From positions 1 through 6,762 of the IMG/VR virus record IMGVR_UViG_3300029878_000314: DNA of 6,762 bases; one strand, given 5' to 3'. The stretch comes from a virus (lineage: Duplodnaviria; Heunggongvirae; Uroviricota; Caudoviricetes). This document shows positions 1,469 to 6,762 of this stretch, in pieces (the stretch's first letter is position 1; every line of letters begins with the position of its first letter). Position numbers and translations under genes: made by a program. The notes under the pieces are model-generated. The model was given only the letters and a program-made list of their open reading frames with translations. It was not told where the DNA came from and did not search any database.

Positions 1469-4400
1469 ATGGCAGTAAAGATTTCAGGTGTACTGAAAGA
1501 CGGTGCAGGTAAACCGGTACAGAACTGTACAATCCAGCTGAAAGCAAAACGTAACAGCACCACGGTGGTGGCGAACACGGTGGCCTCAGAAAACCCGGAT
1601 GAAGCCGGGCGTTACAGCATGGACGTTGAGTACGGTCAGTACAGCGTTATTCTGTTGGTGGAAGGCTTCCCGCCATCGCATGCCGGGACCATCACCGTGT
1701 ATGAAGACTCACAACCGGGTACGCTGAATGATTTTCTCGGTGCCATGACGGAGGATGATGTCCGTCCGGAGGCACTGCGCCGCTTTGAACTGATGGTGGA
1801 AGAGGTGGCGCGTAACGCGTCCGCAGTGGCACAGAACACGGCAGCCGCGAAGAAGTCAGCCAGTGATGCCCGCACATCAGCCCGTGAGGCGGCAACCCAT
1901 GCGACTGATGCTGCGGACTCCGCACGCGCAGCCAGCACGTCAGCCGGACAGGCCGCGTCGTCGGCTCAGTCAGCGTCTTCCAGCGCAGGAACGGCATCAG
2001 CAAAGGCTACTGAAGCATCAAAAAGTGCTGCCGCTGCAGAGTCTTCAAAAAGCGCGGCAGCCACCAGTGCCGGTGCAGCGAAAACGTCAGAAACGAATGC
2101 CGCAGCATCACAAAAATCTGCGGCCACTTCTGCATCCACCGCGACCACGAAAGCGTCAGAAGCTGCCACCTCAGCCCGGGATGCGTCGGCTTCAAAAGTG
2201 GCGGCAAAATCATCAGAAACGAGCGCAGCCTCGAGCGCCGGCAGTGCAGCTTCCTCGGCAACGGCGGCAGGAAATTCCGCGAAGGCCGCAAAAACGTCTG
2301 AGACGAATGCGGATAACAGCGCACAGGCGGCAGCAGACTCACAAACTGCATCGGCAAATTCCGCGACAGCAGCCAAAAAATCAGAAACCAACGCGAAAAA
2401 TAGTGAGTCAGCAGCAAAGGTCAGCGAAACCAACGCTAAAGCGTCAGAGAACAAGGCGAAAGAATATCTCGACAAGGTCGGGGGACTCGTCAGCCCGATG
2501 ACGCAATACGATTGGCCTGTTGTTACTGCTAGTGAGTCTCTTTACATCAAGATCGCGAAACTTTCCGATCCTGGAACCAGCAGAAGTCATGTAACGCTAA
2601 TGGTTACTAACGCTGGTAACTACGGCTCCCCTTACGGAAACATTGACTTTATCGAGATCTCGGCGCGCGGTCTGCCTTCTTCGCTTACTGCGGATAATGT
2701 TTCTCGTCATCTGAGTATACGCCGCTTAGGGTCAACCGGGCTGACCGATAACAACCAGATGCGTTACGGCCTGGTTAAAGGTGACGGCTTTATTGAGGTT
2801 TGGGCATTCCAGGGTGCGTTTATTAACGACGCAAAGGTTGCGGTGCTGGCGCAGACAACACTAAGCACAGAATTATACATCCCAGACGGATTTGTTAAGC
2901 AAACCGCCGCGCCTTCTGGATATATTGAAGGCAACGTTGTAAGGATTTACGACCAGGTAAACAAGCCGACTAAAGCAGATTTGGGTCTTTCTAATGCTAT
3001 GCTTACAGGCGCTTTCGGTCTTGGCGGTAGCGGGATAGCAACAAACGGCAAGATGAGCGATGTAGAGATCTTAAAAGCTCTGCGTGACAAAGGTGGTCAT
3101 TTCTGGCGCGGTGATAAGCCGACCGGAAGCACGGCGACCCATTATGACCACGGTTCTGGTATATTCTCGCGGTGCGGCGATACGTGGTCTGCGATCAATA
3201 TCGACTTCAGAACAGGTAAGATCAAGGTTTACGCTGGTAACGATAGTGGACTTAATAGTGGTAAATTTTCCGTCAATGAGCTATACGGAACCCGAAACAA
3301 GCCGTCGAAATCGGATGTTGGACTTGGCAACGTAACTAACGATGCGCAGGTAAAAAAATCCGGCGATACCATGACAGGTGACTTGACAATCAAAAAAGGT
3401 ACACCGTCAGTCTTCCTGCGGGCAGACAGTGGAGTCACCGCTTTGCGGTTTTATACTGGCGATAACACAGAGCGCGGCATAATCTATGCTGGTCCTAACA
3501 CTGATTCGCTTGGCGAAGTTCGCATCAGGGCAAAGACAGCAGGGGGGACATCAGGAGGGGATCTTGTTGTTCGTCACGACGGGAGGGTTGAAGTCCGTGA
3601 TCTCACAGTAGCGTATAAAATTAAAAGCAGAACGATTGAGATTGCAAATACCGACACTGACTCATCGGCAACTACGCTAAGCATCTATGGAGTACAGCAC
3701 ACGCCGTTGGTTTTAACGCGTTCTGGTTCTTCTGAAAATGTGTCCATTGGGTTTAAGTTAGACAACGTGAACCCAAAGTATCTTGGAATTGATACTAATG
3801 GGGATCTGGCTTTTGGTGAGAGTCCTGATCAGAAACAAAACAGCAAATTGATCACGCAAGCGAAACTCGACAAGGGATTAACGATTGGTGGTCAACTGGC
3901 TTTCAAAGGTACGACAGCGTTTTCAGCCGCTGCTACGTTCAGTGCCGGGATAGCAGGAGCTATCGAGCCGGAAAACATTGGCGGCCAGAAGGTTGATCTT
4001 AACAACCTGACCATCAGGTCAGATGCCGGGGCGGTTAAATACTATAGTTGTCCATCCTCTGGAGGTGGTGCAAATATCACCAACAAGCCTGACGGTGTAA
4101 CCGGTAACTTTTTGCTCCGTGTAGAGTCGACTCGCAAAGTTTCTGCTTCGGATTATGCGAACATGCAAACGCTGATCAGCAACGACACAAAACGTATATA
4201 CGTTCGCTTTGTTGTTAATGGAAACTGGACAGCGTGGAGTCAGGTTGTTGTTTCCGGATGGAATCAGGATGTAACCGTCAGGTCGTTAACCTCGACGACT
4301 CCATCAAAATTAGGTGGCGGGCGGATTGATGTGCTTGGAAGTACGTCAGATTATGGCAGCATGAATTGTACCGTTCGTGGTGTTGATAGCACTGGAACCA

Positions 4401-5245
4401 ATTCGGCGTGGTCGGTAGGCACATCAGAAAGCACAGGCAAAATGTTGTTCCTGAAAAACCACAGAAGCAGCGCTCAAGTGCTGTTAAATGGCGATGATGG
4501 AGCGGTTCAACTACTAAGTGGCACTGTTAACGGTGCTACAGCGCAGGCGCTCACTATCAACAGGAATGAGGTTAACTCAACTGCCGATTTAGTAATTAGA
4601 AAACAAACAGGGACTGGCAATCGTTTTGCTTTACTTAATTCAGGTAATTCAGAACTACCAGTTAGTATCAGGGTGTGGGGTTCCAGTACTCGACAAAACG
4701 TTTTTGAGGTTGGAACGTCTGCTGCGTATCTGTTTTATGCGCAAAAAACAACAGACGGGCAAAACCTTACTGTAAACGGAAGTGTTAACTGCACCACACT
4801 GAATCAGTCATCAGACCGCAGACTGAAAGAAAATATCGAGATTATCGATAACGCGACTGACGCAATCCGCAAAATTAATGGATACACGTACACGCTCAAG
4901 GAGAATGGGGCACATTGCGCCGGGGTTATAGCCCAGGAAGTTGAAGAGGCCATCCCGGAGGCCGTTGGTTCATTCATCCATTACGGTGAAGAGTTGCAAG
5001 GCCCGACCGTTGACGGCAACGAGCTACGCGAAGAAACGCGCTATCTTAATGTTGACTACGCCGCCGTGACGGGTTTACTTGTTCAGGTCGCCCGTGAAAC
5101 AGATGATCGCGTTACCTCGCTGGAAGAGGAAAACACAACGCTACGTCAAAATCTGGCAACAGCAGACACCCGGATCAGCACTCTGGAAAATCAGGTAAGC
5201 GAACTGGTTGCACTTGTCCGGCAGTTAACAGGAAGCGAACATTGA
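1469..5245 (+). CDS. stf: Side tail fiber protein (Stf-like), mosaic: lambda-Stf-like N-terminal anchor with Ala/Ser/Thr repeat region, divergent distal domain, and C-terminal peptidase-S74-type intramolecular chaperone domain
   Basis: Supplied ORF 1463..5245 starts at GTG; I prefer the in-frame ATG at 1469, giving MAVKISGVLKDGAGKPVQNCTIQLKAKRNSTTV…, which matches the lambda Stf N-terminus from memory. The product is about 1258 aa. The C-terminal ~145 aa contain …NQSSDRRLKENIEIIDNATDAIRKINGYTYTLKE…, the hallmark of the self-cleaving chaperone domain of endosialidase-type tailspikes and T5 pb1-like fibers. Stop TGA at 5243-5245. Confidence 0.9.
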   Translation: MAVKISGVLKDGAGKPVQNCTIQLKAKRNSTTVVANTVASENPDEAGRYSMDVEYGQYSVILLVEGFPPSHAGTITVYEDSQPGTLNDFLGAMTEDDVRPEALRRFELMVEEVARNASAVAQNTAAAKKSASDARTSAREAATHATDAADSARAASTSAGQAASSAQSASSSAGTASAKATEASKSAAAAESSKSAAATSAGAAKTSETNAAASQKSAATSASTATTKASEAATSARDASASKVAAKSSETSAASSAGSAASSATAAGNSAKAAKTSETNADNSAQAAADSQTASANSATAAKKSETNAKNSESAAKVSETNAKASENKAKEYLDKVGGLVSPMTQYDWPVVTASESLYIKIAKLSDPGTSRSHVTLMVTNAGNYGSPYGNIDFIEISARGLPSSLTADNVSRHLSIRRLGSTGLTDNNQMRYGLVKGDGFIEVWAFQGAFINDAKVAVLAQTTLSTELYIPDGFVKQTAAPSGYIEGNVVRIYDQVNKPTKADLGLSNAMLTGAFGLGGSGIATNGKMSDVEILKALRDKGGHFWRGDKPTGSTATHYDHGSGIFSRCGDTWSAINIDFRTGKIKVYAGNDSGLNSGKFSVNELYGTRNKPSKSDVGLGNVTNDAQVKKSGDTMTGDLTIKKGTPSVFLRADSGVTALRFYTGDNTERGIIYAGPNTDSLGEVRIRAKTAGGTSGGDLVVRHDGRVEVRDLTVAYKIKSRTIEIANTDTDSSATTLSIYGVQHTPLVLTRSGSSENVSIGFKLDNVNPKYLGIDTNGDLAFGESPDQKQNSKLITQAKLDKGLTIGGQLAFKGTTAFSAAATFSAGIAGAIEPENIGGQKVDLNNLTIRSDAGAVKYYSCPSSGGGANITNKPDGVTGNFLLRVESTRKVSASDYANMQTLISNDTKRIYVRFVVNGNWTAWSQVVVSGWNQDVTVRSLTSTTPSKLGGGRIDVLGSTSDYGSMNCTVRGVDSTGTNSAWSVGTSESTGKMLFLKNHRSSAQVLLNGDDGAVQLLSGTVNGATAQALTINRNEVNSTADLVIRKQTGTGNRFALLNSGNSELPVSIRVWGSSTRQNVFEVGTSAAYLFYAQKTTDGQNLTVNGSVNCTTLNQSSDRRLKENIEIIDNATDAIRKINGYTYTLKENGAHCAGVIAQEVEEAIPEAVGSFIHYGEELQGPTVDGNELREETRYLNVDYAAVTGLLVQVARETDDRVTSLEEENTTLRQNLATADTRISTLENQVSELVALVRQLTGSEH
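1810..2460 (+). repeat. Low-complexity Ala/Ser/Thr-rich repeat region within stf (phage tail-fiber repeat-like, recurring AAKTSETNA-type motifs)
   Basis: The translation is dominated by A, S, T, K and E with recurring motifs (AAKTSETNAAAS, AAKTSETNADNS, AAKKSETNAKNS, AAKVSETNAKAS). The nucleotide sequence is GC-rich with reiterated GCN codons. Boundaries are approximate. Confidence 0.6.
4811..5242 (+). other. C-terminal intramolecular chaperone / autoproteolytic domain (peptidase S74-like) of Stf
   Basis: The motif S-D-R-R-L-K begins at the Ser codon 4811-4813, with Ser and Lys five residues apart as in the described Ser/Lys dyad of this family. Conserved-looking downstream block: ENIEII…INGYTYTLKE…GVIAQEVEE…LNVDYAAVTGLL…, ending in a heptad-like segment (LEEENTTLRQNL…LENQVSELVALVRQL). 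The domain boundary is inferred, not measured. Confidence 0.7.
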
Positions 5246-5290
5246 TATCCTTCAAGCTCTGAAGGAGGCTGTTCCCGGTACGTTCAGACT

Positions 5291-5428
5291 GTTGTTGAGC
5301 TGGAAATCGCAACGGAGGAAGAAACCTCATTGCTGGAAGCCTGGAAAAAGTATCGGGTGTTGCTGAACCGTGTTGATACATCAACTGCACCTGATATTGA
5401 GTGGCCTGCAAATCCTGTCAGGGAGTAA
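5291..5428 (+). pseudogene. tfa: Tail fiber assembly protein (tfa) 3' remnant, no start codon, about 45 C-terminal codons retained
   Basis: The translation in this frame is …[45 protein letters not shown], which matches the lambda Tfa C-terminus as I recall it (…[42 protein letters not shown]). There is no in-frame initiation codon between the stf stop and the homologous segment. Stop TAA at 5426-5428. Confidence 0.75.
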
Positions 5429-5477
5429 TCATTGGGATTATGCCGCAGCACGTCTTAAGCAAGAACGTGCTGCGGTT
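5300..5477 (+). repeat. Direct repeat copy A (about 178 bp; tfa 3' coding end plus downstream hairpin)
   Basis: Aligns base-for-base with 6349-6527 at offset +1049 (+1050 after a 1-nt indel in the hairpin). There are roughly 11 mismatches in the 129-nt coding part (about 91% identity). The 3' untranslated part is almost identical except in the hairpin loop. Confidence 0.85.
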
Positions 5478-5491
5478 GGATGCTATTTTTT
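5442..5491 (+). terminator. Stem-loop between the convergent tfa remnant and the methyltransferase gene; possible terminator or RNA-stability element
   Basis: 11-bp stem: GCCGCAGCACG (5442-5452) pairs with CGTGCTGCGGT (5466-5476), with a 13-nt loop. A T6 run at 5486-5491 lies about 9 nt downstream, not immediately adjacent, so this is not a canonical intrinsic terminator. A homologous hairpin exists in copy B at about 6491-6527. Confidence 0.35.
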
Positions 5492-6151
5492 CCCTGAAGC
5501 GGAAAACATTACTACAGTACCTTGAACCTTGGTTTTAACATTCTCGAAATGCTCTGAGAGTATATGTGTTAAGCCTTCTTCGGAATCTTTTGTGTTTGAA
5601 AAGATGCCTTTCTGATTGTAAATGCGCATCAGTTTTTGACCGAAGCTATTGTGCACAACTCCATCGCCAAGAATTGTGGCTCCGTATAGAGTTCCATCGT
5701 CAGTTAAGGCCTGCGCCGCATTGCGTATTACACAGCTTTTTGTAGATATATTTCCAGGCAGGCAGTGAAGAAGGTAAAACATGGAAATGGAATCAAATTG
5801 ACCATGTAACGCCGCGGGATAAGGTTCAAAAACATCATGGCTAATTTTATGTTTAATTTTTGATTCCCCAGCCCTTGTAGATGCCGCGTTCAGGCTAGCT
5901 TCGTTCAAATCCATTAAAGATATCAGACTACTCTCAGGTACGTGAGTAAGGTAAAACCCAGTTCCAACACCAATATCCAGATGGTTGTTACCTACATGTT
6001 CCAGAAAGTGTGGAAGAAGGTGTTCCTTTGTAGGACATCCCCATGCAAGCCGATTTGATACTCCCAAAACCCACCAGTCATAAAGCTTTAGGGTAAGTGG
6101 TGTGTAAATTTTAGCCCCATCATCTGTGTTTTTTTTCATTGATTTCACCAT
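5483..6151 (-). CDS. Class I (Rossmann-fold) SAM-dependent methyltransferase-like protein, about 218-222 aa, probably a moron (accessory cargo gene)
   Basis: Minus-strand ORF. The translation carries a glycine-rich SAM-binding motif I (HLDIGVGTGFY), a post-I acidic strand (ISLMDLNE), a motif II-like block (FDSISMFYLLHCLP) and a motif III-like block (LTDDGTLYG). There is no DPPY/NPPY or PC/ENV motif, so a small-molecule, protein or RNA methyltransferase is more likely than a DNA methyltransferase. It is visibly more AT-rich than the flanking phage genes. The alternative start at the second Met (rc of 6137-6139) has a better SD (GGTGA, 5-nt spacer). From memory this resembles ybcY of E. coli K-12 DLP12, which sits between tfa fragments; that is unverified. 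Confidence 0.75.
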   Translation of the reverse strand: MVKSMKKNTDDGAKIYTPLTLKLYDWWVLGVSNRLAWGCPTKEHLLPHFLEHVGNNHLDIGVGTGFYLTHVPESSLISLMDLNEASLNAASTRAGESKIKHKISHDVFEPYPAALHGQFDSISMFYLLHCLPGNISTKSCVIRNAAQALTDDGTLYGATILGDGVVHNSFGQKLMRIYNQKGIFSNTKDSEEGLTHILSEHFENVKTKVQGTVVMFSASGKK

Positions 6152-6207
6152 GTTATAGTTTTATTTGTGAATTAAATCAATTATGGCGATGAATTACAAG
6201 GGGTTAA
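6152..6207. promoter_or_regulatory. AT-rich divergent intergenic region between the methyltransferase gene (-) and the tfa-like ORF (+); probable promoter region
   Basis: 56-bp AT-rich spacer between divergently oriented start codons. I could not place convincing -35/-10 hexamers by eye, so this is a positional inference only. Confidence 0.3.
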
Positions 6208-6477
6208 ATGCTGCCGCAGCATAGCGATATTGAAATAGCCTGGTATGCTTCGATACAGCAGGAGCCGAATGGCTGGAAGACCGTCACCACACAGTTCTAC
6301 ATCCAGGAATTCAGTGAGTATATTGCGCCACTGCAGGATGCTGTAGATCTGGAAATCGCAACGGAGGAAGAAAGATCGTTGCTGGAGGCATGGAATAAAT
6401 ATCGGGTATTGTTGAATCGTGTTGATACATCAACTGTACCTGATATTGAGTGGCCTGCAAATCCTGTCAGGGAGTAA
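6208..6477 (+). CDS. Short tail-fiber-assembly-like protein (Tfa C-terminal domain fused to a novel about 35-aa N-terminus); TfaX-like fragment, function uncertain
   Basis: 89-aa ORF. The C-terminal half (…[53 protein letters not shown]) matches the lambda Tfa C-terminus as I recall it. The N-terminal portion ([35 protein letters not shown]) is not recognisably Tfa. Possible SD AAGGGG at 6198-6203 with a short 4-nt spacer before ATG 6208. It may be a remnant rather than a functional gene. Confidence 0.55.
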
Positions 6478-6527
6478 TCATTGGGATTATGCCGCAGACA
6501 CGTCGTATGCAGGAACGTGCTGCGGTT
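6349..6527 (+). repeat. Direct repeat copy B (about 179 bp; tfa 3' coding end plus downstream hairpin)
   Basis: Partner of 5300-5477; see copy A. Most coding differences between the copies are synonymous or conservative (T/R, K/N, A/V at the protein level). Confidence 0.85.
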
Positions 6528-6591
6528 AGTTTGTGAGCTTTCGATAGTGGTTGTTATTTTTGCCCTTATTTGTTCCGGAGGCCATGGTTCA

Positions 6592-6762
6592 ATGGTCCGT
6601 CTGCCCCCTGTGGTGATGTCAGCAAAATCAGCCACTGCGCGAACCACAATAGCCCGGGAAGATGCTGAAGATCACCAGGTAAAGCTGTCAGCGCAGAAAC
6701 TGGAAGAACTGCTCGCATCAATGGTTAAGGATGAGGTTGATCGCAATGATGGGATTTATTGA
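6592..6762 (+). CDS. Hypothetical small protein (about 56 aa; alternative start ATG 6616 gives 48 aa)
   Basis: The supplied ORF 6481..6762 has no plausible RBS at its 5' end. The internal ATG at 6592 is preceded by GGAGG (6577-6581) with a 10-nt spacer. The translation (MVRLPPVVMSAKSATARTTIAREDAEDHQVKLSAQKLEELLASMVKDEVDRNDGIY) has no family I recognise. Stop TGA at 6760-6762 is the last three bases of the window. Confidence 0.4.
   Translation: MVRLPPVVMSAKSATARTTIAREDAEDHQVKLSAQKLEELLASMVKDEVDRNDGIY

Follow-up and report, generated by a model that had tools for sequence, protein, structure and literature searches.

The question raised by this locus is how a prophage came to carry two similar 3′ ends of tfa, in direct orientation, on either side of a methyltransferase gene. 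The window, by which is meant the whole stretch of 6,762 nt that was analysed (IMG/VR record IMGVR_UViG_3300029878_000314), comes from a lambda-like prophage that is inserted in ompW and forms the right end of its late operon; its features are collected in Table 1. The initial annotation saw in the two segments a pair of diverged, functional tfa alleles that had been brought together by separate exchanges at a recombination hotspot. From the anatomy of the locus, the truncations, the pattern of divergence, the polymorphism in populations and the mosaic SNPs, we consider it likely that the tfa ends are dead remnants of two different tfa genes around an accessory methyltransferase cassette, and that the block they belong to provides a homology arm for exchange.

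Anatomy of the two tfa remnants

Table 1. Features in the right-hand part of the late operon (positions in the window).
Feature	Position	Strand	Remarks
stf, side tail fibre gene	1469–5245	+	Pfam phage_tail_N, 1.1e-71; Peptidase_S74, 2.6e-16
Junction of S74 fibre module and decapitated tfa	5246–5282	+	Same frame as stf, straight after the stf TGA
tfa remnant A (copy A), last ~45–48 codons of a lambda/DLP12-type tfa	5283–5428	+	Pseudogene, without start codon
Hairpin A, CCGCAGCACGT / 11-nt loop / ACGTGCTGCGG	5443–5475		11-bp perfect stem; 3′ hairpin of the methyltransferase unit
Class I SAM-dependent methyltransferase gene, 222 aa	5483–6151	−	‘Moron’ cargo; Pfam Methyltransf_12/23/25/11
Methyltransferase upstream region and 31 non-tfa codons of ORF 6208–6477	6152–6300		Weak promoter-like site on the − strand
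tfa remnant B (copy B), last 58 codons of a second, diverged tfa allele	6301–6477	+	PGAP pseudogene; equals tfaX of DLP12
Hairpin B, stem of hairpin A with a bulged A at 6498, loop CGTATGCAGGA	6492–6525		3 loop substitutions
Truncated start of a conserved ~62-nt block (...GAGCTTTCGATAGTG...)	6526–6550		Block normally behind hairpin B; homology ends at ~6549
DUF4376 tail-fibre-related pseudogene	6574–6762	+	Third tail-fibre-module remnant; runs out of the window towards attR in ompW

The N-terminus of the stf product is of lambda type, and its C-terminal part contains an S74 ‘chaperone of endosialidase’ domain at residues 1115–1166 (about nt 4811–4966); the protein is named in RefSeq ‘pyocin knob domain-containing S74 family peptidase’. 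In endosialidase-type intramolecular chaperones the S74 C-terminal domain is cleaved off once the protein has folded. With a chaperone of its own in the fibre end, Stf folds without Tfa, which thus becomes dispensable. Near-identical junctions between the S74 module and tfa are present in phages Ayreon and mEp460 and at three further loci (L140, L143, L144), and the contexts downstream of them are all different.

Homology of copy A to full-length tfaD and lambda tfa begins at 5283. What is left is the conserved C-terminal helical domain, which matches Pfam Caudo_TAP (PF02413) at positions 86–130 of 131 only (E = 1.5e-20), and RefSeq (PGAP) lists it as a pseudogene, ‘incomplete; missing N-terminus’. 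Copy A is in frame with stf, with one TGA between them; after that stop neither an in-frame start nor a ribosome-binding context was found for it. Copy B matches Caudo_TAP at positions 75–130 of 131 only (E = 1.7e-24) and forms the end of ORF 6208–6477 (89 aa), a chimera of 31 non-tfa codons fused to a tfa C-terminal fragment. In a protein search the first 31 residues of this ORF occurred only in fragment proteins of 86–142 aa and never in a full-length Tfa.

Neither copy is a functional tfa gene. Both fall short of a full-length Tfa of ~190 aa, with its variable N-terminal fibre-binding domain, and neither has a start of its own directly behind a Tfa-requiring fibre gene, B following the reverse-strand methyltransferase gene. 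The description of the two segments as functional alleles must accordingly be given up: they are C-terminal ends, A without a start and B chimeric, and PGAP treats both as pseudogenes. For annotators this means that ‘tail fiber assembly protein’ calls at 5283–5428 and 6301–6477 are pseudogene fragments, beside an S74-type fibre that needs no Tfa. The DUF4376 pseudogene (PGAP: ‘internal stop; missing N-terminus’) matches phrog_1141 (tail fibre protein) and phrog_7703; beyond it lie an ompW fragment and then yciE–trp.

The methyltransferase cassette and its hairpins

The methyltransferase gene is the intact version of the K-12 pseudogene ybcY and is assigned to phrog_2132, a PHROG without assigned function. 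Its GC content is 0.37–0.43 versus 0.46–0.56 in the flanks, and a homologue of 62–64% identity occurs in a non-phage Enterobacter chromosome beside peptidase M3, short-chain dehydrogenase and GntR-family genes. A role in defence was considered and rejected: PADLOC gave no significant defence match, the sole marginal one being mad2 (E 0.009, no stretch passing alone), and the PDB matches, to UbiG and juvenile-hormone methyltransferase, were weak and of the small-molecule type. The promoter-like site upstream (6207–6180, − strand) agrees at 9 of 12 positions, and such sites are not more numerous than in shuffled sequences.

Hairpin A, the methyltransferase gene and truncated tfa B constitute a cassette that is old, widespread and accessory. 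It is placed between the resident tfa and the hairpin that normally stands behind that tfa. The cassette is also carried by phages 2G7b, ev243 and the PhiR series, and is missing from mEp460; the methyltransferase gene was found in about 49 of 60 evenly spaced best matches among 4904 E. coli records, and the layout recurs in the majority of complete E. coli genomes. Collinear ompW prophages exist with the cassette (the window, L141) and without it (L140, L142), the presence or absence that marks a moron.

Conservation of the hairpin downstream of both tfa ends, as first described, is evident from the common 11-bp stem. The stems comprise 11–12 bp with G:C at 8 of 11 pairs, and stretches of 72–73 nt have predicted folding energies of −28.6 kcal/mol (z = −4.6) for A and −24.2 kcal/mol (z = −2.4) for B. 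In Shigella/E. coli L006, O157 strains and APEC O78 the left edge of homology of the methyltransferase unit is at 5443. AAAAA precedes hairpin A in APEC O78, which places UUUUU behind the stem on the − strand, and U-runs are also present in many IMG/VR contexts. In the window no U-tract lies directly behind the stem of either hairpin on either strand, the tails being UUGGAUGCUAUUUUUU (A) and UUAGUUUGUG (B) on the + strand and CAUAAUCCC on the − strand; a terminator scan did not call hairpin A and called hairpin B as a 5-bp sub-stem only. The hairpin looks like a shared convergent terminator, with predicted activity in the window. The earlier designation of it as a terminator is therefore plausible, given the stable GC-rich stem and the U-run on the − strand elsewhere, but not canonical here because of the missing U-tract.

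More than 100 instances of the hairpin family are present in IMG/VR. The hairpin B type stands directly behind tfa, or behind lambda ea47, in other phages, and its 34-nt sequence is identical in lambda at 24162–24195, between ea47 and ea31. Compensatory changes have occurred at two places: C:G has become A:T in the inner stem of lambda hairpin 1, and the basal pair is AU in 6 cases, GC in 5 and UA in 1. The loop sequence CGTATGCARGA is conserved, and the bulged base is kept in many copies; since the flanks are 85–99% identical, conservation of the loop may reflect only recent common ancestry. Assignment to a known RNA family was rejected. Rfam RF02111 (IS009) scored 112.5 and 95.1 bits, below the threshold of 117, on what is essentially tfa sequence, and RF02799 (CssrB, Shigella) scored 33.7 bits against a threshold of 76, with the terminal hairpin alone matching; the 3′ end of the CssrB consensus is hairpin A. 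The t′J sites are late-operon terminators of the lambda b region. The searchable literature contained nothing relevant on such terminators, so that no lambda terminator with a name of its own is put forward here as the counterpart of the hairpin.

The hairpin and the ~62-nt block behind it might also form a discrete lambdoid boundary element of ~100 nt, with a function of its own and a standard slot for leftward accessory genes, which we regard as unlikely; if it were so, the duplicated tfa ends of the window would be one footprint of the slot. Two stem-loops are predicted in such an element, and the genes exchanged in the slot would include ea47, the methyltransferase gene, dinI and ipaH-linked units. 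It might stabilise or terminate the 3′ end of the late mRNA, for example, or be a recognised recombination site. The lambda copy of hairpin and block, between ea47 and ea31, has no annotated feature in the reference record NC_001416.

Divergence of the copies and origin of the repeat

The direct repeat comprises 5285–5448 and 6334–6497, with 90% identity. A gapped alignment extends from about 5290/6339 to 5477/6527 (189 nt, 90.5%, BLAST E ~1e-69 to 1e-70), an identity far above chance, and includes a run of 60 nt without mismatch at 5389–5448. In Tfa the fibre-binding N-domain varies, and conservation is found in the helical domain at the C-terminus (PMC9608196). It is this conserved helical (trimerisation) domain that the 3′ ~130 nt of tfa specify, which accounts for the likeness of the repeats.

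Between the tfa ends proper (5300–5428 and 6349–6477) 11 of 129 nt differ (8.5%), in agreement with the figure of about 9% given initially. Seven codons have synonymous changes and three have amino acid changes: T→R (two bases), K→N and A→V. By the method of Nei and Gojobori, applied to 42 codons, there are 7.5 synonymous differences (Sd) in 29.8 sites and 3.5 nonsynonymous differences (Nd) in 96.2 sites. The resulting dN/dS of 0.12 (Fisher p = 0.0014) is not near 1. The differences had been called mostly synonymous or conservative; the first term is apt, and of the three amino acid changes A→V alone is clearly conservative. A pattern in which most differences are synonymous was therefore acquired while both parent genes were functional, and the three replacements make some drift after truncation likely.

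The B haplotype is limited to the position after the methyltransferase gene (29 of the 29 copies bearing it), and resident tfa copies are A-like. Other haplotypes at the B position are mosaics (bbbaaaaaaaa, xabaaxaaaaa and aaaaaaaaaaa). Among the sampled loci no full-length tfa had the B haplotype, so that the parent of copy B is a gene whose existence we infer.

Had the tfa 3′ end been duplicated in tandem recently in this genome, for instance through insertion of the methyltransferase gene with target duplication, and had the copies then drifted neutrally, direct repeats around a single inserted gene would result; lambda ea47, too, lies between homologous, non-identical hairpins, which has the superficial look of a target duplication. 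Neutral drift of two dead copies is, however, incompatible with a dN/dS of 0.12, and the B haplotype, which hardly varies, stays linked to the methyltransferase gene in phages and genomes with differing A copies and left contexts. Moreover, the left edge of the repeat is set by the truncation of copy A, the tfa homology of B reaching 40–50 nt further left, and the arrangement is common to K-12 DLP12 and hundreds of genomes. A duplication in place is thus highly improbable, and the initial reading of the segments as diverged alleles is upheld on this point. An artefact of assembly, in the form of a collapsed or duplicated contig end, has practically negligible probability: no point in its favour was found, 21 of 195 aligned positions distinguish the copies, and the structure recurs in the K-12 reference, in isolated phages that were sequenced independently and in 466 complete E. 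coli genomes with 80% or more of window 4800–6762 in collinear form. It is very unlikely that one or both fragments are functional, ORF 6208–6477 as a free Tfa trimerisation domain or copy A via readthrough of the stf TGA that alone separates it from stf. Of 40 loci, 32 have the ORF intact, and it belongs to large protein clusters and has a PHROG family of its own (phrog_2341); this leaves a small chance of expression and usefulness, and the tfa-derived part of the ORF keeps the conserved helical domain. A Tfa C-terminal domain of this kind might hamper or aid fibre assembly of its own or a superinfecting phage. The same ORF is nonetheless truncated in 8 of the loci and has been shortened independently in K-12 (61 aa), 2G7b (66 aa), L058 (11 aa) and Ayreon (32 aa), and polymorphism in its 31 opening codons, 3 synonymous versus 8 nonsynonymous, is near the neutral expectation. 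As for copy A, it lacks a start codon and ribosome-binding context, and since S74 C-terminal domains of the endosialidase type are cleaved off, a readthrough tail would be discarded.

The duplicated tfa ends could, alternatively, be a by-product of a dedicated, enzyme-recognised site for recombination or cassette insertion, formed by the hairpin with or without the ~62-nt block. Breakpoints located exactly at the hairpin edge (5437–5456) in several unrelated contexts, the at least 10 different upstream contexts that adjoin hairpin and block, the conserved loop, the bulged base kept in many copies, and the Hin/Pin-type recombinase genes that adjoin the hairpin in some loci would all be in keeping with such a site. 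Yet no recombinase is consistently linked, the window, the lambda ea47 region and mEp460 differing in this respect, and the window has no recombinase or invertase ORF by ORF list and Pfam. To our knowledge the hairpin is unlike the 26-bp gix/hix/cix crossover sites; many exchange endpoints lie within tfa, not at the hairpin; and the covariation and adjoining U-runs fit an RNA terminator. We therefore consider a dedicated site quite unlikely, and return to the remnants of two different tfa genes, with exchange through their shared homology.

Exchange of modules in populations and in known systems

Four combinations occur at the same ompW prophage site: an S74 or a conventional fibre, each with or without the methyltransferase gene. 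To the right of the S74 junction there are 5 different contexts. To the left of the cassette are a full-length tfa (20 loci), a short tfa ORF (11), ipaH without tfa (3) or the S74 junction (2). Homology breakpoints recur at 5283–5312, 5406–5410 and 5437–5456. The four ompW states, with the five right-hand and four left-hand contexts, indicate that the conserved tfa 3′ end and hairpin are the shared homology for exchange; their proposed role as a homology anchor is thus borne out, the mosaic SNPs and recurrent breakpoints being in accord with it.

The probable order of events would begin with copy A as the resident tfa of the lineage, cut off when an S74-bearing fibre end took the place of the distal part of stf and of the 5′ two-thirds of tfa. 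The cassette most likely arose once, by an illegitimate join that would have fused the methyltransferase upstream region of one phage to the middle of tfa in another, and may afterwards have spread through homologous exchange. The conserved tfa end with its hairpin would act as the right-hand homology arm for swapping host-range modules (the stf C-terminus with the tfa N-terminus), and on the other side of the same arm accessory genes would be exchanged, in both cases by ordinary RecA- or Red-type recombination. The stem-loop would separate the late operon, read rightward, from the accessory genes, read leftward, as a terminator-like boundary common to both.

Such exchange has been demonstrated by experiment in lambda, which gains stf–tfa DNA from Rac and Qin by homologous recombination, mainly Red-beta-dependent (PMC3945230). 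DNA of this region that is 88–96% identical over ~700 bp exchanges at ~2e-6 per phage (De Paepe et al., 2014; PMC3945230). The junctions of lambda × Rac recombinants were scattered over stf–tfa, and no hotspot was reported (PMC3945230). Chi (GCTGGTGG) is absent from both strands of the window, by which a Chi hotspot was rejected. The locus thus gives no evidence of a recombination hotspot in the strict sense.

The direct repeats had also been thought to make the intervening segment prone to deletion. The 60-nt identical run makes this possible, but the predicted S74 single-copy product was present in 1 of 5426 genomes (L140), so that such deletion is either infrequent or counterselected. L140 is a single-copy variant without the intervening gene, of the kind for which the initial annotation suggested a search; its SNPs follow a third-allele pattern, so that it is no clean recombinant of the two copies in the window, and a simple A × B deletion was rejected as its origin. 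The single-copy L140 and L142 could be ancestral empty sites or deletion products, and for L142 the SNP patterns fit either. Repeat-mediated deletion was likewise rejected for Ayreon, where the methyltransferase gene was lost by another deletion (window ~5519–6177) that left both flanks.

The layout is a common, already annotated scar of phage module swapping and no new kind of element. Since the principle, the counterpart in K-12 and the mechanism of recombination are all established, it raises no new question. It offers a data-rich example of the reshuffling of host-range and accessory modules in temperate coliphages, in which the homology comes from a shared hairpin and from one strongly conserved segment in a gene that otherwise varies, and dead gene ends are carried along as scars.

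The K-12 equivalent is tfaD–ybcY′–tfaX of DLP12 (E. coli K-12 MG1655, b0561–b0563), which has the same order and orientation. Window 5283–6454 is collinear with MG1655 at 581.9–583.1 kb, with 96.7% identity over 1172 nt. The upstream tfaD of DLP12 is longer (564 nt) and fused to debris of a terminase gene, whereas tfa in the window is cut off by the S74 module; ybcY is a pseudogene, and the methyltransferase gene of the window is intact; and tfaX has a premature stop and a replaced 3′ end, so that hairpin B is missing.

In the tfa–ea47–ea31 region of lambda, the conserved 3′ ~130 nt of tfa and a homologous hairpin are likewise followed by a leftward accessory gene, and a second hairpin, identical to hairpin B, is followed by the conserved ~62-nt block (lambda 24162–24260). 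In contrast to the window, the cargo is ea47 rather than a methyltransferase gene, the second hairpin stands without a tfa fragment in front of it, and the first hairpin has compensated stem changes (AACGTT/AACGTT).

Morons are accessory transcription units between conserved lambdoid phage genes. The methyltransferase gene resembles them in being present or absent, of low GC content, in opposite orientation and equipped with its own 3′ hairpin. Repeats of an adjacent gene on either side are no part of the classic definition, whereas the cassette in the window carries a dead piece of tfa, which is the homology arm.

The invertible tail-fibre segments (Mu G/Gin, P1 C/Cin, e14 P/Pin and p15B Min) also have alternative or partial fibre and tfa-type (U/U′) ends, which adjoin the fibre gene, and in them too host range is diversified by recombination. 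They use inverted 26-bp crossover sites and a serine invertase, whereas the repeats of the window are direct and no invertase is present. Closest in mechanism is the stf–tfa exchange between lambda and defective prophages (De Paepe et al., 2014; PMC3945230): that study does not address the methyltransferase cassette or the hairpin, but the exchange it describes is the one proposed here for the window.

The two tfa remnants

Neither tfa copy in the window is a working gene. In Tfa the fibre-binding N-terminal domain is variable and the trimerising C-terminal helical domain is conserved (PMC9608196). Copies A (5283-5428) and B (6301-6477) keep solely the latter, matching positions 86-130 and 75-130, respectively, of the 131 in the Pfam Caudo_TAP profile, and RefSeq labels both "tail fiber assembly protein, incomplete, missing N-terminus". 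Copy A begins directly past the stf stop codon, in the stf frame, and has no start codon; these truncated ends are not the functional tfa alleles suggested in the initial annotation. The stf TGA alone separates stf from in-frame remnant A (5243-5428), so readthrough would lengthen the fibre protein by 60 residues that include the C-terminal helical domain of Tfa.

At its C-terminus the stf product has an intramolecular chaperone domain of the Peptidase_S74 family. S74-type fibre ends fold and then remove their own chaperone, as is established for endosialidase-type fibres. Because such an end supplies and removes its own chaperone, Tfa is dispensable for this fibre. Phages Ayreon and mEp460 have the same S74/tfa junction (5246-5299), as do three other prophages of E. 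coli. This sharing suggests that distal stf and the 5' portion of tfa were lost in one replacement in a common ancestor. Copy A is the scar of this S74 fibre swap.

The tfa homology of copy B starts at about 6301. The 31 codons upstream (6208-6300) are found only in short fragment proteins, never in full-length Tfa. Among 37 comparable loci, 3 of their variants are synonymous and 8 nonsynonymous, in line with expectation in the absence of selection. The 6208-6477 ORF has been broken independently in 8 of 40 loci, K-12 tfaX among them. The Rfam family RF02111 ("IS009"), which describes a candidate sRNA of E. coli, has matches on the plus strand at 5185-5385 and 6231-6434. These matches to the tfa remnants score 95.1 and 112.5 bits, just under the gathering score of 117, and the family seems in essence to be the conserved 3' region of tfa rather than an independent RNA gene.

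A repeat search of the window paired 5285-5448 with 6334-6497 at 90% identity; in a gapped alignment the repeat reaches 5477/6527, across the stem-loop (189 nt, 90.5% identity). Between 5300-5428 and 6349-6477, 11 of 129 nt differ (8.5%), close to the 9% first estimated. Seven codon changes are synonymous and three change an amino acid (T to R, K to N, A to V), giving a dN/dS of 0.12 (Nei-Gojobori; Fisher p = 0.0014). This strong synonymous bias indicates that most of the divergence built up while selection acted on both parent genes, which supports the independent origin proposed for the two copies. Conservation of the downstream hairpins was confirmed: hairpins A (5443-5475) and B (6492-6525) share an identical 11-bp stem, B having a bulged A and three loop substitutions, and the stability of both clearly exceeds that of shuffled sequence. 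An assembly artefact is ruled out, since at least 80% of 4800-6762 is present as a single collinear piece in 466 complete genomes, and the repeat structure is present too in K-12 MG1655 and in isolated phages.

Prophage setting and the methyltransferase cassette

The window is the right end of the late operon of a lambda-like prophage. In E. coli WP2-W18-CRE-03 a 99.9% identical region runs into a fragment of ompW, followed by yciEFG and the trp operon; the prophage is therefore integrated in ompW. The tfa repeat region lies about 0.8 kb from attR. The fibre gene is one unbroken ORF here; the annotation of RefSeq genome L001, which is otherwise similar, splits it (5667-9446) into an N-terminal pseudogene and an S74 peptidase CDS of its own. 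Over the full window, identity to L001 is only 95%, with 51 gaps; the two prophage ends, though nearly identical, therefore differ in their fibre gene. The N-terminal third of stf (1844-2440) is rich in Ala, Ser and Thr and has a degenerate repeat at multiples of 21 nt (spacings of 84, 126 and 147 nt), the 29-nt core of which occurs six times. In the signal-peptide region of lom (805-834), a 15-nt tandem duplication (GCCGCCATTTTGTCC / GCAGCCATTTTGTCC) yields a 10-residue protein stretch.

Features of the window and copies of the conserved element of about 100 nt
Feature	Position	Strand
Tail-tip protein J, C-terminus	7-723	
lom	790-1404	
Side tail fibre gene stf, 1258 aa	1469-5245	
Short tfa-like stretch	between stf and methyltransferase gene	
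Class I SAM methyltransferase gene	6151-5483	reverse
tfa-like ORF, 89 aa	6208-6477	
DUF4376 tail-fibre-related pseudogene, start only	last in gene order of window	
Element of about 100 nt, window	6492-6550	
Element of about 100 nt, lambda (L004)	5262-5360 = lambda 24161-24260	
Element of about 100 nt, L030	8704-8806	

Hairpin A, the methyltransferase gene and copy B form a cassette. In K-12, tfaD-ybcY-tfaX of the cryptic prophage DLP12 matches window 5283-6454 at 96.7% identity, and the layout is shared by phages 2G7b, ev243 and the PhiR series and by about 30 IMG/VR contigs, in which hairpin-to-hairpin spacing is invariant (1049-1050 nt). The methyltransferase gene was present in about 49 of 60 hits sampled at even spacing from the best hits among 4904 E. 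coli records. Ten or eleven diagnostic bases define the B haplotype. Among the collected loci 29 copies have it, all downstream of the methyltransferase gene, and resident tfa copies are A-like. Copy B therefore belongs to the cassette and is no second resident gene; it is carried as a passenger by this widespread methyltransferase unit.

The methyltransferase (phrog_2132) has only weak similarity to small-molecule methyltransferases and gave no significant defence-system match in PADLOC (one marginal, E 0.009). Enterobacter chromosomes (L013-L016) carry a 61-64% identical homologue whose neighbours are genes for peptidase M3 (dcp-like), a short-chain dehydrogenase and a GntR-family member; phage genes were absent from the examined flanks. 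Together with the lower GC of the phage gene, this fits a moron of chromosomal ancestry, and the Enterobacter homologue is a likely source of it.

Exchange and deletion at the conserved tfa block

All four combinations of fibre and cassette are found at the same ompW prophage end. The S74 fibre with tfa remnant occurs with the cassette (window, L001) and, with a single remnant, without it (L140, 1 of 5426 genomes); a conventional fibre with full tfa likewise occurs with (L141) and without it (L142). SNP patterns at the B-position and related copies are mosaic: in L141 A-type coding bases lie between B-type flanks and hairpin, K-12-like copies switch from B to A past three sites, and L140 has the junction of A, the hairpin of B and a third allele. 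To the right of the S74 junction there are five contexts (the cassette; DUF4376 directly; dinI; pin-ydfK-...-methyltransferase; the cassette minus its methyltransferase gene), and to the left of the cassette four (full tfa, short tfa, S74 scar and, in Shigella, an ipaH gene). Across the E. coli collection, the ends of homology fall into three clusters: 5283-5312 (left edge of the conserved block), 5406-5410 (just upstream of the stop codon) and 5437-5456 (hairpin). Homologous exchange of lambda with Rac or Qin in the stf-tfa region was measured at about 2e-6 per phage and is mainly Red-beta dependent (PMC3945230). These findings support the proposal that the conserved tfa 3' block serves as a homology anchor. 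The suggested hotspot, taken as anything beyond plain homology, was not borne out: the window has no Chi site, and the lambda study saw no hotspot inside the exchange region (PMC3945230).

The initial annotation held the direct repeats to favour RecA-mediated deletion. The longest perfect identity, 60 nt (5389-5448; next runs 25, 19 and 15 nt), is enough for low-frequency RecA or Red recombination. The predicted single-copy product was found in one complete genome only, L140, whose SNPs do not fit a simple A x B crossover, whereas both copies are kept in 436-466 genomes; the cassette is therefore evolutionarily stable. In Ayreon (L019 3316-3432) both cassette flanks remain and only the last 36 nt of the methyltransferase ORF survive; the rest was lost in an unrelated deletion (window about 5519-6177) that did not involve the tfa repeats.

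A longer accessory region is present in APEC O78 (L143 2876-5492), in the order S74 stf, tfa remnant without hairpin, pin-type recombinase gene, ydfK, ynaM/ynfT, hairpin A and methyltransferase gene. This suggests that the layout of the window derives from arrangements of this kind by shortening.

The hairpin family and known systems

The hairpin consensus is CCGCAG-NN-ACGT-CGTATGCARGA-ACGT-G-CTGCGG, and compensatory changes preserve the stem. At least 119 IMG/VR contigs match the search pattern, mostly as members of this family. In some places the hairpin directly follows tfa; in others there is no tfa and at least 10 unrelated sequences lie upstream, and there a conserved block of about 62 nt nearly always comes next. 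In lambda, tfa is followed by one hairpin and ea47 by another, which is identical to hairpin B. Several contexts have an A-run upstream of the hairpin, which provides a U-run on the minus strand; in APEC O78 hairpin A, with its canonical minus-strand U-run upstream of the methyltransferase 3' end, forms a canonical leftward terminator. Within the window no U-tract adjoins the stem of either hairpin on either strand. The Shigella sRNA CssrB is about 180 nt on Northern blots, and terminator prediction put its 3' end at the hairpin (PMC3071730), as does the Rfam alignment (RF02799). In Shigella flexneri and Shigella-like E. coli (L006, L008, L009; 4709-5000) the methyltransferase unit adjoins an ipaH-type LRR effector gene and begins precisely at the hairpin. 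We read the hairpin as a shared boundary or putative terminator between the rightward late operon and leftward accessory genes.

Hairpin and block (CTGGCTGGTGAACTTCCGATAGTGCGAGTATTGAATGATTTCCAGCCGTTACCGATTTTAC) together form a discrete conserved element of about 100 nt, the sole mildly novel lead here. It has about 35 sequence variants in L021-L139 and variable sequence on both sides. Its RNAalifold fold consists of two predicted stem-loops in which some pairs are compensatory; the G-U pairs point to the plus strand. The lambda reference record has no feature annotated over it; the window copy is truncated about 25 nt past the hairpin.

The repeats described in the initial annotation are real and its reading was largely right in spirit, with dead gene ends in place of functional alleles. 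The arrangement is already annotated, as tfaD-ybcY-tfaX in K-12 and as pseudogenes in RefSeq, and the mechanism is textbook phage mosaicism, directly supported by experiment.
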